A DNA stretch of 64,000 bases from a virus (Duplodnaviria > Caudoviricetes), in the IMG/VR virus record IMGVR_UViG_3300028591_000009, positions 42,603 to 106,602 of that record. One strand, 5' to 3'. Position 1 is the first letter of the stretch, and every line of letters starts with the position of its first letter. Under the pieces are notes generated by a model. It did no database searches and had not been told where the DNA came from. It saw only the letters and a list, made by a program, of their open reading frames with translations. A program made the translations under genes and the position numbers. Below, in pieces: positions 7,367 to 46,915 of this stretch.

Positions 7367-9238
7367 CTAAAATAATTCTAGTTGTTGTTCAGTAAAGTCA
7401 GCAATTATCTTTTTGGCTTCACTGGTATAGTAACGATAGTTAATTTTGCGATCTTCTATCGGTGTATCATCAAACTTATTCAGGATTGTTACTCCTGATT
7501 TTGTTAACATATTTGTTCGGTCTCTACCATCTTCAGGATTATCCTTATAAAGGTATTCACCGTTAGTGCTTGCATAAAATCTATTGATACGTTGTACAGG
7601 TTTATCACCATGCATAACTTTAAACTTCTTATCTACAGCTTGTGACATTAAGAAATCACGGATATCTTTATCCTTCTCAATAGTTTCTGTCACTGGAATG
7701 TTATGGACAAAGTAATTTATTACAGCTTTTGGAATGACTACTGGTGCTAGTCCCTTCCCAAGCTTTGTTTTTGTAATAAACATACCTTTTTCTTCTATCT
7801 CTCCGCCTTTCAAGACCCCAAAGTAGTCATTGATAGCGTATTGATAGAATGCTTCGTACTCATCTACTTCAAAACCAAGTTGTGTAATCTGTTCTACCTC
7901 TGAGATGGCTCTCTCTATACCCTCTTTAAGGCTGTTTTTAGCCCTGTAGACGACGCCATCAGTGTTGACCTGAATGATTTCACATCCAAGCTCCAAAAGC
8001 CTGTCTACAAGCATTAAAAGGATTAGCTGACCGTTTATTCTAATCTTAAAAACATTGAACGGATCATACATCCAACTTACCTCCTGTTGCATTTTACCAG
8101 TAGGAGAATTAAGCACGATCTTTAGAAACAGATTCTTAATCTTTTGACCAGTACGTTTTGCTTCTATTCGTTCATAATAAATACCTTCGAATATATCGCA
8201 AAATAGTTTTCCTAAGTGTCGAGGACCCAATTGATACTTAATTAATAAGCTTGGATACATACTAGTGACGTCGGCGTGTCCTATGTGCTCGTCATCTTTA
8301 GGGTGGAATATTTTCGGAGTATGTATAGAGTGAATACCTCCTACGCCTACTGAATACACCACATTTGAGAGAACAAACTTCTTCTCATAGCCTTTGCGCT
8401 CTTTAGAGTATACGATCTGTTTCTTCATATCCTCAAGAACGTCCTGTAACTTTGGATTTTTGTATTTTATAAACGGCAGAATAACATCCTTCAATGGAAT
8501 ATAATCCATAGGAGAACGCATTTCCTTTATAACATTTTTTGGAATACCTGACCGTTTAGAATATTCTTCTAACAGGAAGGTTTCTGCCATTTTAACACTG
8601 TCCATAGAAAGACAATCTATGCCGTGTTCTTTTTCGATAAACAACCTTAAATCGATTTGCTCTTTCAAGCGGCTTAATAACTCAGTAGTCGATTCAACAT
8701 CGTTTATATTGTATGCTATCATTTCGTCAATTTTATCTACAGGCAAGGGTTGATCGAAATCTCCCTCATACTCATAGACATTCTTATAGTGCATTGTAAC
8801 CTGCATGGTTTTCAAACCCACTCTAAGCTTTTGACTAAACTGCATTGTGAGTAAGTCCATAGACTCGAAGTAATGTGCATACTTCCATCGTTTGAGCTTC
8901 TCACGACTCCCATCTTCGTCTTCCACTATCGTAGTAGATAGATTAAACAAAGACTGACAAATCTTCCAATAAGGTAAACTTGCCAGTGTATGTGAATAAT
9001 CAATTATATAATTGATTATAACATCGTCATAATGATGGTTATTATAACCACAAAACATTCGCATGCTTTGTTTACCCTCAGATAAAAAGAAACCAACTAG
9101 ATCTTCTAGTTGATTCCTTCTTTCTGATATCTCAAATTTGTATAGTCGACTTGTCTCTGTATCTTTACAGCAACAGTGGAAACAATTAGGGAATATCTCT
9201 ACGTCGTATACGTAGACTATTCGATTTCGTATCCACAT
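7367..9238 (-). CDS. DNA polymerase family B with 3'-5' exonuclease domain
   Basis: ExoI YDVE, ExoII GYNNHHYD, ExoIII YNIND; polymerase motifs DVTSMYPS, KIVLNSPTGK, NTDG. Confidence 0.93.
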   Translation of the reverse strand: MWIRNRIVYVYDVEIFPNCFHCCCKDTETSRLYKFEISERRNQLEDLVGFFLSEGKQSMRMFCGYNNHHYDDVIINYIIDYSHTLASLPYWKICQSLFNLSTTIVEDEDGSREKLKRWKYAHYFESMDLLTMQFSQKLRVGLKTMQVTMHYKNVYEYEGDFDQPLPVDKIDEMIAYNINDVESTTELLSRLKEQIDLRLFIEKEHGIDCLSMDSVKMAETFLLEEYSKRSGIPKNVIKEMRSPMDYIPLKDVILPFIKYKNPKLQDVLEDMKKQIVYSKERKGYEKKFVLSNVVYSVGVGGIHSIHTPKIFHPKDDEHIGHADVTSMYPSLLIKYQLGPRHLGKLFCDIFEGIYYERIEAKRTGQKIKNLFLKIVLNSPTGKMQQEVSWMYDPFNVFKIRINGQLILLMLVDRLLELGCEIIQVNTDGVVYRAKNSLKEGIERAISEVEQITQLGFEVDEYEAFYQYAINDYFGVLKGGEIEEKGMFITKTKLGKGLAPVVIPKAVINYFVHNIPVTETIEKDKDIRDFLMSQAVDKKFKVMHGDKPVQRINRFYASTNGEYLYKDNPEDGRDRTNMLTKSGVTILNKFDDTPIEDRKINYRYYTSEAKKIIADFTEQQLELF

Positions 9239-9265
9239 GACTCATAGGTTCTTTAGTTAATACTA

Positions 9266-18125: not shown

Positions 18126-18685
18126 GATTGTAATTTTAAACGTTGTCTTAACTTACGTCTAGTCCTGGAGAGCGTGGATTTTATAGTTCCTACTGGTACT
18201 CTAGGATTAAACGTCTTACTAATCTCTTCTACGGTTAAATTATCTACATAAAATCTTTCAAAGATCTTACGAGTGACCTCTGGAAGTTTCTCAAACTCAC
18301 GAAGTAGTTCCTTATACGTCAGATGATTGACTAAGTCATCTTCAGCACAAGCCTGAATATTGGAGTTTAGTCGGTCCTCCTTTATATCAGCTACTTGTTT
18401 GTTCTTTATACTACGCAAATAATCAATTGCAGTTCGATTAGTCAATATTCGCAGCCAACCCCCAAAGGAGTCGTATGCTACAAATTTCGAGAGTTTATCA
18501 TGCACTTTAAGAAAGACAATATTTGCCACTTCTTTAGACTCGTCCATATCTTTTAGATACTGGAACAAAAGACTCTCTACAAAGCCTTTATACTTGTAGT
18601 AAAGTGCATTAAAAGCAAGCTCATCGCCTGCTTGCGCTTTTTTGATTAAGTCAACTTCAGTTGGGGTGATTCTAGGATTCTTCAT
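18122..18685 (-). CDS. ECF-type (sigma-70 group 4) RNA polymerase sigma factor
   Basis: LIKKAQAGDELAFNALY, region 2 SFGGWLRILTNRTAIDYLR, region 4 LTVEEIS...VPVGTIKSTLSRTRRKLR. Confidence 0.9.
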   Translation of the reverse strand: MKNPRITPTEVDLIKKAQAGDELAFNALYYKYKGFVESLLFQYLKDMDESKEVANIVFLKVHDKLSKFVAYDSFGGWLRILTNRTAIDYLRSIKNKQVADIKEDRLNSNIQACAEDDLVNHLTYKELLREFEKLPEVTRKIFERFYVDNLTVEEISKTFNPRVPVGTIKSTLSRTRRKLRQRLKLQS

Positions 18686-19222: not shown

Positions 19223-19760
19223 AACTCTTTATTAAGAAGTCAACTAATCTATCTACAAATGCATATTTAGCTTGTTTTTCTTCTTCTGAAGCGTCTCTTG
19301 AAGGCATGAGTTCGCTAAGATGAGTATTAATAATCTCAATACGTATATCAAGATCAGTTCTACCTATCTTTTTAGAGTTATCATACGTATTTTGTACATA
19401 CGCGTGATTAGTTCTGAACCAGTTTACCCATGAAGTAACCCTTTTCCAATATATTTTCGTACTTGGATCTTTTGGGTCATTTGTATCAGTAAGCTCGTCC
19501 CAATCAATACTTCTCTCAAATATAAAGTTTTTAGGTTTACCTTTAACAATTCCAAGTATAGCTCGTACGATCTCCTTCTTATTTTCAGGAGCTTTTTGTA
19601 TAAGTCTGCTTTCATTATCAACTTTATCGCCTATAATCTTTACGAAATGAGTATAAGTATGTTCAACCCATGCATTTTTAGATTTTGTAAACTTCAATGC
19701 AAGGTCTACAACTTTGGGACAGCGGTCCCGTAACATTTCACGATATCCTAGTTTTTTCAT
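19203..19760 (-). CDS. Hypothetical protein (TAG stop)
   Basis: 185 aa ORF. Confidence 0.7.
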   Translation of the reverse strand: MKKLGYREMLRDRCPKVVDLALKFTKSKNAWVEHTYTHFVKIIGDKVDNESRLIQKAPENKKEIVRAILGIVKGKPKNFIFERSIDWDELTDTNDPKDPSTKIYWKRVTSWVNWFRTNHAYVQNTYDNSKKIGRTDLDIRIEIINTHLSELMPSRDASEEEKQAKYAFVDRLVDFLIKSFEKEYV

Positions 19761-19762
19761 AG

Positions 19763-19836
19763 TGATTCCTGAACGATTCGAACGTTCGACCGACAGATTA
19801 GAAATCTGTTGCTCTATCCAACTGAGCTAAGGAACC
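19763..19836 (-). tRNA. tRNA-Arg(UCU)
   Basis: Full cloverleaf; anticodon arm ACAGA-TTTCTAA-TCTGT. Confidence 0.93.
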
Positions 19837-19900
19837 TTTTGAGGCGTTTGTTTTTATAGTGGTGTCAAGCGAGCCTCTGTAAGCATGTCCACAACATTGG

Positions 19901-19946
19901 AATGAGTGCAGGCTTCGAACCTGCCATAGTTCCGTTATTACTCATT
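19901..19946 (-). ncRNA. Mini tRNA-like element (acceptor + T arm only)
   Basis: AATGAGT/ACTCATT stem stacked on GCAGG-TTCGAAG-CCTGC with a 15 nt linker. Confidence 0.6.
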
Positions 19947-20262
19947 CACCGTTCACAGGCACTTAGGTAGCCTGTACACCGACTTCACGCTGCCTCCTGG
20001 AGACCCGTGTAGTCTGCAATGTTATAATTGCCAGTTAATTTTTATATCGAAGCGCTTAACGTCTTACTTTCCGCTGCCGTCAAAACCATTCAAGCCCAGA
20101 TTAAAAGCTCCCGCCTCTATCCTCTGTACACCTTCTTCAGTGCCAGCGAGTACACAATTCAGGGAGCTTGGAGTGTTAATCAATAATACACGTGGACCTG
20201 GGCGGAATCGAACCGCCGTCCGAACAGCATATCCTAGGACACGCTAAGATTTCACTTGTGAA
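19947..20262 (-). ncRNA. ssrA: Circularly permuted (two-piece) tmRNA
   Basis: T arm + CAGGTCC-A (ends 20193) lies upstream of GGGCTTGAATGGTTTTGAC (starts 20097); G3-U70 pair; P2 pairings; tag frame 20032-19985 = GNYNIADYTGLQEAA*; outer ends approximate. Confidence 0.88.
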
Positions 20263-20736
20263 CCTCACAATGATCAGTTGTAAGATTCGATTTAAGGCTA
20301 TTTACAGCCTCTCTGACGCATTTTCTATACTCTTGTGGGTAGCTAATCCTCTGGAGTATATTAAACGCTTAGAATGGCTTTTTCATAAACCTTTATTTGT
20401 AGTACATTGCCCTGACTGACTCTCTGGTTCTTGCAGAATATACTCGCATTCTTGATATACAACGCGGTAGCTGCTTCCCTTAATGAAGGTTGACCGCTCA
20501 CAGTAGCACCGGTTCATGACTCATACGTCGTAATTGTTGATCTAATGGCAGCATATTATTACACCGTGCTGACGGTGTTGATTTTCGCACGTGACTCAAA
20601 GGTTCTTGTGTATGTGTCAATTCACATAAAGCAGACTACTTCATCCATACCAGGCGCAATGCCATTTTTACATTTTTCGACTGCTTATACACCACTGATT
20701 CTAGGATTCTGGGTGAGTGAAAATCATATAATGGGA

Positions 20737-21231
20737 TTAATCCCACCAGTAGGCGTAACGACCCTCATAGCTGGCGCGCAGCTCTTCGAGATCCTTACGT
20801 AACTGCTTGTTGCTCTCAGAGATCTTCTTCTCAATCTCCTCGTTCAACTTACGCTTCTCTTCCTTGTACTCGGTAGGAGTCAGGACTGGCTCTTTGCACT
20901 TGTTCTTTGTGGGAACCAGGCGACCGTTGACAATCTCTGTCTCAAAGCCGATTACACGCTCGAGCAGCTTCTTCGTTCCGTCCAACTTCTCCTTGGTGAT
21001 GTCGTCTTCACGGCGACGTGCACGGAGTTCCGCACGGGTCTTGACGTTCTGATAGGTGGCCAGACCAATTGCATCCTTGATCTCGCGCTTCTTCTTGTCT
21101 GCCTCCTCCTTCTTCATGTCGGCGACAGCAGCCTCTACCAGAGACTCCTCATCCACGTGGTTGTTTACTTTGAAATCCTGAGGCTCTGCTGCATTTTCAG
21201 CTGCCTTCTTGTTTTCTTTCTTTTCTGCCAT
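20737..21231 (-). CDS. Charged coiled-coil hypothetical protein
   Basis: 164 aa ORF with CATTTATCAAAAATG leader. Confidence 0.75.
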   Translation of the reverse strand: MAEKKENKKAAENAAEPQDFKVNNHVDEESLVEAAVADMKKEEADKKKREIKDAIGLATYQNVKTRAELRARRREDDITKEKLDGTKKLLERVIGFETEIVNGRLVPTKNKCKEPVLTPTEYKEEKRKLNEEIEKKISESNKQLRKDLEELRASYEGRYAYWWD

Positions 21232-24928: not shown

Positions 24929-25171
24929 TTATTGCGTAATGATAAAATTGCCTTGTATGCTGATTCCAAGATTCTTAGCATTTTCCCTGATAGAGTGTAC
25001 CAATACTTTAGCAGCATTGGGAGTTACGTCTTTACATAACAGCATAGAGCTGTCCCCATCCTTATAGAATACTCTTCTAATAGGATTTATGGGAACAGAC
25101 TCTCTGTTTTTCTTCTTAGGCGGATGCAGTTGGTTCTGGGTTCTTACGTTCATACGCAGTAATATCCACAA
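24929..25171 (-). CDS. Small hypothetical protein (start uncertain)
   Basis: Fills the gap between co-oriented ORFs. Confidence 0.45.
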   Translation of the reverse strand: MWILLRMNVRTQNQLHPPKKKNRESVPINPIRRVFYKDGDSSMLLCKDVTPNAAKVLVHSIRENAKNLGISIQGNFIITQ

Positions 25172-35128: not shown

Positions 35129-35203
35129 TGTCCTATGGTGTAGTGGTAGCACAGGAGGCTCTAACCCTCCAGGTCCGGGTTCGATTCGATGGTAGGACGA
35201 CCA
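35129..35203 (+). tRNA. Amber suppressor tRNA-Gln(CUA) with encoded CCA
   Basis: TGTCCTATGGTGTAGTGGTAGCAC tRNA-Gln-type body; GGAGG-CTCTAAC-CCTCC with anticodon CTA at 35161-35163. Confidence 0.9.
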
Positions 35204-46873: not shown

Positions 46874-46915
46874 TGCGTAGAATGGTTAATCTTGGTTCGA
46901 TTCCAAGCTGCGCAC
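46874..46915 (+). ncRNA. Mini tRNA-like element (acceptor + T arm only)
   Basis: TGCGTAG-AATGGTTAAT-CTTGG-TTCGATT-CCAAG-CTGCGCA. Confidence 0.6.

Follow-up and report, generated by a model that had tools for sequence, protein, structure and literature searches.

The DNA analysed here, hereafter the window, is a stretch of 64,000 nt from a phage genome held in IMG/VR as record IMGVR_UViG_3300028591_000009 (106,602 bp), and all coordinates are those of the window. On its minus strand, between positions 20254 and 19948, lies a locus that is very probably a genuine, selectively maintained, circularly permuted transfer-messenger RNA (tmRNA; ssrA) gene of a rumen crAss-like phage (Suoliviridae/Oafivirinae-like). 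An initial annotation made from the sequence had placed the normal 3' end of the tmRNA ahead of its normal 5' end, and every coordinate given there was correct. The gene had also been described as phage-encoded, which agrees with the terminal repeats and the 100% estimated completeness of the genome and with its Crassvirales relatives.

ARAGORN called a permuted tmRNA* at 19894-20284 (minus strand) with the tag GNYNIADYTGLQEAA, the same tag as in the initial annotation. Rfam, to which that annotation had also pointed, supported the call. The model RF04321 (tmRNA_permuted) matched at 64.5 bits, with a gathering score of 47. The alpha (RF01849) and cyano (RF01851) models gave no match at E up to 10, and beta_tmRNA (RF01850) gave a partial match of 32 bits limited to the tRNA-like domain (gathering score 84). 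None of the gathering thresholds of these three lineage models was reached by the window gene.

The gene begins with the acceptor piece, the core of which (20193..20254) was delimited by sequence reading, ARAGORN, RF04321 and covariation. This core carries the 3' strands of the helix P2 segments P2c (AGCGT, 20245-20241) and P2b (GTC, 20240-20238), a conserved internal loop, the 3' strand of P2a (GCTGTT, 20228-20223), the T arm (GGCGG/TTCGATT/CCGCC, 20217-20201), the acceptor 3' strand CAGGTCC (20200-20194) and the discriminator A73 (20193). C74 is encoded at 20192, and the remainder of CCA is not. A spacer of 95 nt (20192-20098), closed by AAGCTCCC/GGGAGCTT, separates the two pieces and folds into a hairpin followed by a U-run immediately ahead of G1. 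The coding piece of approximately 150 nt (19948..20097), defined by sequence, ARAGORN, covariation and folding, opens at G1 (20097) with the acceptor 5' strand GGGCTTG (20097-20091) and a D-loop analogue. Subsequently, it carries the 5' strands of P2a (GGCAGC, 20078-20073), P2b (GAC, 20063-20061) and, after a GTTAA bulge, P2c (GCGCT, 20055-20051), followed by an A/U-rich single strand of 18 nt and the tag open reading frame (ORF) at 20032-19985. Helix H5 (20012-19983) includes the stop codon, and a post-tag hairpin with the conserved loop CUACCUAAGUG occupies 19979-19951. The tRNA-like domain lacks an anticodon arm; it comprises the acceptor stem of 7 bp and the T arm, whose loop is of the TTCGA type.

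The structure was compared across approximately 21 related crAss-like genomes overall, of which 17 IMG/VR members were used for the acceptor stem and spacer and 15 genomes, aligned with MAFFT, for the pairing. Pig, macaque, human, lemur and ruminant samples yielded more than 20 genomes, each assembled independently, in which the permuted order was kept; this answers the concern of the initial annotation that the order might be a mis-assembly. The acceptor stem across the spacer was perfect in 17/17 members and occurred in seven variants differing at positions 4-7, while G3-U70, A73 and C74 were invariant in all 17. The 7-bp stem with G3-U70 and A73 had already been read from the window in the initial annotation. 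The T stem retained 5/5 pairs in 17/17 relatives with compensatory changes, and the spacer, which ranged from 17 to 201 nt, was not conserved.

Thirty pairs, taken from the acceptor stem, T stem, P2a, P2b, P2c and post-tag hairpin, were tested in the 15-genome alignment. These positions were 88.8% paired compared with 71.9% in shuffles, and 20 of the 30 pairs were altered on both sides. The covariation score was 0.50 compared with 0.19, a level reached by 0/500 shuffles, and when the partner was moved by 1–3 columns, the pairing fell to 35–49%. As both pairing and covariation exceeded the shuffled and slid controls, the match was far beyond chance, and the covariation across crAss relatives that the initial annotation had named as a check was found in the acceptor stem, T stem and P2. 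Within P2, the P2a helix GGCAGC/GCTGTT paired as originally read and covaried. The supported register of the remainder consists of GAC/GUC, a 5-nt (R)UUAA bulge and GCGCU/AGCGU, with compensatory variants in both P2b (GAC/GUC, CAC/GUG, UAC/GUA and GUC/GAC) and P2c (GCGCU/AGCGU, GCACU/AGUGU, GCGUA/UACGC and GUGCUA/UAGCAU). In L015 and L028, a small GNRA hairpin replaces the bulge between P2b and P2c. The second P2 helix of the initial annotation, ACGTTAAG/CTTAGCGT (P2b register ACGUUAAG/CUUAGCGU), was in the wrong register, being 59% paired in relatives with zero compensation.

The tag GNYNIADYTGLQEAA extends on the minus strand from the resume codon GGC (20032) to a TGA stop (19987-19985). In 22 sequences, the tags share the pattern G/D/Q-N-x-N-(x)-x-x-D-Y-T, and their C-termini are GL(Q/K)(E/Q)AA, (H/N)VA or KLAA. 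Of the variable columns, 4 fell at first, 3 at second and 8 at third codon positions, and the D-Y-T codons showed synonymous changes only. The stop codon was TGA in 13 sequences, TAA in 9 and TAG in none, and in the folded H5 it lies at the 3' edge. Judged from this codon pattern, the tag is under coding-type selection, and the frame that had been proposed to open at GGC is conserved across the 22 sequences with changes mostly at third positions. Separately, five genomes (L018, L022, L023, L153 (cr130_1) and L154 (cr7_1)) carry CAG or GAC in place of GGC at the resume-codon position; the remaining tag is in frame, and the true resume codon of these genomes is uncertain.

Only 18 nt lie between P2c and the resume codon in the window, whereas approximately 50 nt, including pseudoknot 1 (PK1), occupy this interval in host Bacteroidales tmRNAs. 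Since these 18 nt alone precede the resume codon after P2c, PK1 is absent, in line with the original remark that there was no room for it, and no pseudoknot was recognisable elsewhere in the window tmRNA. The inter-piece helix P2c stands at the position of PK1. In E. coli, PK1 is reportedly replaceable by a stable hairpin, and two-piece tmRNAs are recorded as having a reduced number of pseudoknots (PMC3968760). Given this hairpin replacement, PK1 is typical of tmRNA but not strictly defining (PMC3968760).

Both ends of the gene adjoin conserved structure. On the 3' side, a tRNA-like minihelix at 19899..19947 (minus strand; fold z = -3.2) is formed by an acceptor-like stem of 7–8 bp and a T arm (GCAGG/TTCGAAG/CCTGC). 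Stem and T arm are joined by a linker of 15 nt (14–51 nt in relatives), with no D or anticodon arm. A strict scan found the minihelix in 14 of 17 members with covarying stems, and in cr7_1, it was called as a D-armless tRNA-Cys(aca). The minihelix may recruit RNase P (and RNase Z) and would accordingly set the 3' end of the coding piece. A tRNA-like signal for 3'-end processing is known from mascRNA on MALAT1, and the likeness lies in a tRNA-like element directly 3' of a functional RNA that could recruit RNase P. However, this is an analogy only, as the window element is a top-half minihelix and a putative cleavage signal. Another mimic of a tRNA top half, with an acceptor-like stem, a T arm and no anticodon arm, is located at 46874-46914 on the plus strand; the linkers of the two mimics are 10–15 nt long.

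On the 5' side, the tmRNA is immediately preceded by conserved hairpins that covary and together span at least 130 nt. A hairpin at 20260..20288 (minus strand; fold z = -3.5), the stem of which covaries and the CUGAUCA loop of which is near-invariant, is directly 5' of the P2c strand and likely extends the acceptor piece in the 5' direction. It is followed upstream by a long covarying hairpin with the conserved loop AUUAGCUAC (20307..20378, minus strand), which is part of a non-coding leader, and by the distal leader (20379..20736, minus strand), approximately 360 nt of conserved, non-coding sequence with further covarying hairpins. In all relatives, a non-coding gap of approximately 430 nt separates the tmRNA from the gene upstream of it. 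Two pairings of the CUGAUCA loop were considered and rejected, namely, with UGAU before the resume codon (PK1 in trans) and with a downstream AAUC (PK4-like), as in each case the partner varies without compensation (L007, L008 and L025). The post-tag loop CUACCUAAGUG could form only 3–5 bp with the P2 internal loop or with AUUAGCUAC upstream; the register shifts from genome to genome, and the loops are near-invariant.

The leader also contains three exact copies of the direct repeat GARYC-N3-GARYCA (20417-20430, 20592-20605 and 20696-20709), and three others are located at 9238-9251, 18667-18680 and 24961-24974. All six are on the minus strand, compared with 0.27 copies expected, and one is at the start of PolB. 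Across genomes, the half-sites shift in concert (GAGCC, GAAUC, GCAUC in L028 and GUAUC in L029), which suggests a co-evolving phage-encoded binding factor.

From the gene order, the helices and the conserved tag, a route from gene to tagged protein can be proposed. The region would be transcribed as a tRNA-type precursor, with G1 (20097) and the 5' side of the minihelix (~19948) as the cleavage sites of RNase P. The 3' end past A73/C74 (20193/20192) would be trimmed and CCA completed, and the 95-nt spacer would presumably be excised. The acceptor and coding pieces would then be held together by the 7-bp acceptor stem, P2a, P2b and P2c. Host AlaRS would charge the RNA through G3-U70 and A73, and host SmpB and EF-Tu would bring it to ribosomes stalled on truncated mRNAs. 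Translation would resume at GGC, adding (A)GNYNIADYTGLQEAA, and tagged proteins would end in ...AGNYNIADYTGLQEAA (DYTGLQEAA). The most likely reason for such a gene would be to keep ribosomes available when non-stop complexes arise through host shut-off, nuclease attack or TAG read-through.

Other explanations of the locus were weighed against this reading. The same order could arise as an artefact, from mis-assembly, from a one-piece tmRNA that uses a downstream T arm as its 3' end, or from a chance match. A second T arm is indeed located 3' of the tag, and RF04321 can fire on a tRNA 3' half joined to a tmRNA 5' half, as in L017. However, the recurrence in more than 20 independent assemblies, together with two features of the pairing, makes an artefact exceedingly improbable: the downstream element has a 3' strand whose pairing partner is the adjacent sequence and not GGGCUUG, and GGGNNNN covaries with the upstream NNNNUCC. 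The one-piece reading through the downstream T arm is ruled out by these two observations. Another explanation leaves the spacer in place, with the RNA acting as a single unprocessed molecule or the pieces arising from separate transcripts through a terminator in the spacer and a promoter before G1. Many spacers end in a stable hairpin and a U-rich run before G1 (the window, L007, L008 and L029), but the spacers of 17–20 nt in L018, L023, L030 and L031 are too short for a terminator plus a promoter. As aminoacylation requires a free 3' CCA end, an uncut molecule, which lacks one, would not be chargeable. This explanation was accordingly regarded as quite unlikely. It is likewise very unlikely that the RNA is a decoy, the tRNA-like domain of which titrates host SmpB, AlaRS or EF-Tu and inhibits host trans-translation while the tag is unused. 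The absence of PK1 would suit a decoy, and the tmRNA of mycobacteriophage DS6A comprises the tRNA-like domain only, such molecules being inhibitory to tmRNA in E. coli (PMC4131195; PMC11915505). However, the tag frame, resume context, H5 and stop are conserved in 22/22 sequences, in which third-position and synonymous changes are in excess, and P2 and the spacing of the resume codon are upheld by compensatory changes.

Several points nevertheless weigh against a working permuted tmRNA. PK1 is needed for tagging in wild-type E. coli tmRNA (PMC3968760), the spacer hairpin and U-run in the window genome could be a terminator, and the tag has EAA instead of LAA at its C-terminus, which makes its degron value uncertain. 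Decay may affect at least one member of the family, L029:1623-1914 (minus strand), in which the acceptor piece has the non-canonical T loop AGGCATA instead of a TTCGA-type loop. RF04321 exceeded its threshold on a non-permuted arrangement (L017:4370-4528, 53.5 bits); because the model also fires there, the permuted call rests on covariation and not on the model score. The L017 match itself consists of the 5' half of a standard one-piece phage tmRNA and upstream sequence. The acceptor piece may begin further upstream than its core, and for this reason, the term "minimised" used in the initial annotation is safe for the PK1 region and the coding piece only; it does not hold for the conserved structured 5' extension and the 3' tRNA-like element. 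Moreover, the public RNA runs are assembled contigs, from which ends, strand and CCA are unreadable.

The public runs containing the stretch are from sheep, goat and bovine gut samples. Rumen metatranscriptome contigs span the whole region, and the phage is present in rumen RNA libraries. In X18, depth bins over 19574-20743 were 50–200, compared with 5–20 on the flanking genes, although contig depth is not an expression measure. Contig joints were found at 20098>20192 (X18), 20037>20192 (X2 and X3) and 19836>19976 (X2); the letters between the joined positions are unidentified, and the joints are compatible with strain variants whose spacers differ.

Regarding its origin, the permutation is somewhat more likely independent and Bacteroidota-derived than inherited from a known two-piece lineage. 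A scan of bacterial genomes with the family T-arm pattern returned mostly Bacteroidota, and the ARAGORN tmRNAs at these loci were one-piece in all but one. Bacteroidales tmRNA genes are 395–400 nt long with GENNYALAA-like tags, and the earlier statement that Bacteroidota tmRNA is one-piece held for those sampled. One-piece tags started with G in 83 of 104 cases, as phage tags do. The 5' domain and resume context are close to those of Prevotella and Bacteroides, the resume context being AAAAAUUAACUGGC in the window and AAAAAUUAAUUGGC in Prevotella. The Bacteroidales-like T arm, G-initial tag and resume context fit the use of host SmpB and AlaRS. An nhmmer search of bacterial loci with the family 5' profile gave weak matches only (E 0.05-1) and thus no independent support for a host origin.

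Descent from an existing permuted lineage, such as the beta-type of large phages, with later adaptation to Bacteroidota hosts is a possible but doubtful origin. In a tree of 113 columns (tRNA-like domain and P2), the crAss clade included L009 with a support of 99/98 and stood beside phage tmRNAs, including the beta-type L013 and L019, at 94/88 on an unresolved Bacteroidota-rich backbone. The sole lineage-specific Rfam match of the window was the partial beta_tmRNA match noted above, and the motif AAGUAAAC of the P2 5' strand is common to the window clade, L013 and L019. However, the 94/88 node is below starred support, is based on 113 columns and joins the longest branches, so that long-branch attraction is possible. 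L013 and L019 scored 132 and 114 bits with beta_tmRNA and approximately 120 with RF04321, compared with 32 (partial) and 64.5 for the window, and neither the window gene nor L009 is of the beta type. Beta-type phage tags start with A (ANDS.FALAA), but those of the window family start with G or GN, as in Bacteroidota, and the Prevotella-like resume context also opposes such descent. Finally, 3' end formation differs, with a terminator in L013 and L019 and a putative tRNA-like cleavage signal, the minihelix, in the window.

Two loci outside the crAss-like set are related to this family. L009:3923-4427 (minus strand) is a permuted tmRNA of the same clade on a 16-kb viral contig with the tag GENNANDCKVIKMIPYGQEEMRKAA; a tRNA-Met immediately precedes its acceptor piece, and a terminator, with no minihelix, closes the coding piece. 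In 151 sampled Bacteroidales genomes, a single RF04321 match above the threshold was found, on a 109-kb contig. This related permuted tmRNA (L160, G030:C48:20201-20567, and L168) is in a Bacteroidales assembly, has the tag GNKIESKIAA and is accompanied by a Bacteroides-type TAnnTTTG promoter motif and a terminator. Judged from its endolysin-like and ParB-like genes, the contig probably represents a phage or phage-plasmid that was binned together with its host.

A BLAST search of phage records found the gene in cr273_1, cr272_1, cr131_1, cr130_1, cr7_1 and cr124_1, all Suoliviridae/Oafivirinae, which are labelled "transfer-messenger RNA, SsrA" in RefSeq, and, unannotated, in Dulem virus 42. Pattern scans of IMG/VR added approximately 14 crAss-like contigs of 95–106 kb. 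The permuted tmRNA is accordingly a family trait of Oafivirinae. Two-piece tmRNAs in phages were already known, and Table S1 of a 2022 paper lists cr273_1, cr272_1, cr131_1, cr130_1, cr124_1, cr125_1, cr115_1, cr114_1, cr10_1 and cr50_1 as "Permuted" (PMC9004378). A 2025 tmRNA database scanned RefSeq viruses and counted "permuted" genes in Bacteroidota assemblies (PMC11915505). In view of the RefSeq annotation and the Table S1 listing, the novelty implied by the initial annotation was overstated. A literature search found no paper on the structure, lineage or function of crAss tmRNA. The existence of the gene is already catalogued, and the new part is its architecture, namely, the absence of PK1, the tRNA-like end-marker and the lack of a match to the three known permuted lineages.

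Some relatives carry a further interruption. In L026:5290-6140 (identical in L032:2284-3180) and L027:2930-3745, the T loop is split after its first nucleotide (-1U / omega-G rule) by a group I intron of approximately 840 nt (RF00028, 80–84 bits). The intron has an antisense ORF of approximately 210 aa, for which no Pfam family was matched, and a search for the L026 intron core in 401 sampled Bacteroidales genomes returned no homologue. These intron-split genes were missed by both ARAGORN and RF04321, and a "permuted plus intron" form is not among the listed forms of tmRNA genes (PMC11915505). Other structured RNAs were also observed in the contigs: RAGATH-1 hammerhead ribozyme matches in the related crAss-like contigs L025:3605-3681 and L011:617-686 (72.6 and 66.9 bits), and GOLLD RNA (211.5 bits) beside tRNA arrays at L019:10890-11350, in the large phage that also has a beta-type permuted tmRNA, with a weaker GOLLD match at L005:1330-1751.

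In the window genome, the tmRNA is located among tRNA genes in a minus-strand early/middle block that uses the standard code. A tRNA-Arg(TCT) at 19762..19836 (minus strand; ARAGORN and Rfam) is next after it in the same direction and probably shares its processed transcript; an ECF-type sigma gene also follows downstream. No smpB (PF01668) was found in the complete 106,602-bp genome, which extends the earlier statement that none is in the window. The late genes (35888-63871, plus strand) are open only when TAG is read as a residue, with 7–19 in-frame TAGs per gene, and a suppressor tRNA with the anticodon CUA (35129..35203, plus strand; labelled Pyl by ARAGORN) is located at the switch to these genes. 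Thus, the TAG code switch that had been suggested from the window is real. The late genes of cr273_1 are TAG-recoded as well according to an ORF test. Homologues of the suppressor tRNA were found by BLAST in 2/5 relatives; cr273_1 gave no match, and because it is nevertheless recoded, absence in this search is uninformative.

Two-piece tmRNAs are a textbook case of RNA gene permutation, and three bacterial lineages are said to possess them. A further lineage in the most abundant phage order of the gut and rumen would, if true, be an independent natural experiment on which parts of tmRNA are dispensable, as the window-type tmRNA has lost PK1 and PK2 to PK4 and retained P2 and H5. It would also represent a new route to tmRNA ends through tRNA-like cleavage signals. 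A putative, testable link between stop-codon recoding in phages and ribosome rescue is offered. Annotation pipelines label these genes only as "tmRNA" and, as described above, miss the intron-containing relatives. Taken jointly, and tentatively, Oafivirinae and a few further phage contigs from Bacteroidota, such as L009 and G030:C48, may form a fourth independent two-piece lineage derived from a Bacteroidota-type gene, in which an intermolecular helix replaces PK1, the minihelix marks the 3' end and the T loop can host a group I intron. The gene would be kept together with TAG-to-Gln recoding, as read-through of host TAG codons would flood the cell with non-stop ribosomes.

Compared with known systems, the nearest are the RefSeq Oafivirinae genes, which share the permuted order, the gap of approximately 430 nt before the gene, the tRNAs and ECF-sigma-like gene after it, and related tags (GN.N..DYT...); the window phage differs as a rumen relative that is approximately 80% identical over part of the gene only. 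Beta-type two-piece tmRNAs (RF01850; L013 and L019) have the same order of acceptor piece, spacer and coding piece, fewer pseudoknots and a partial match in the tRNA-like domain. However, the window scores 32 bits against the 84 of that model, its tag is G-initial and its end is marked by a minihelix instead of a terminator. Alpha and cyano tmRNAs (RF01849 and RF01851) are likewise in two pieces through gene permutation, and the alpha-like ssrA of the marine phage Melnitz is a phage-encoded example (PMC9004378). Unlike these, the window gene matches neither model at E up to 10, has no glutamine riboswitch and belongs to another host phylum and habitat.

The one-piece tmRNAs of Bacteroidales (RF00023; Prevotella, Segatella and Bacteroides) share with the window the 5' sequence GGG(C/G)YUGA.UGG.UUUGAC, the T arm GGACGAGGGUUCGA.UCCCUC, a GGC resume codon in an A-rich UUAA(C/U)U context, a G-initial tag and a P2b-like GCRYG/AGCRU helix. 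In contrast, these host genes of 395–400 nt are unpermuted, have PK1 to PK4 and the tag GENNYALAA, and their nhmmer similarity to the phage family beyond the tRNA-like domain is weak (E 0.05-1). The one-piece tmRNAs of mycobacteriophages and the DS6A RNA, which is confined to the tRNA-like domain, are phage-supplied RNAs for trans-translation that rely on host SmpB (PMC4131195), as the RNA of the window gene probably does as well. Those RNAs are standard one-piece or truncated forms from phages of Actinobacteria, whereas the gene of the window is permuted and its tag is conserved.

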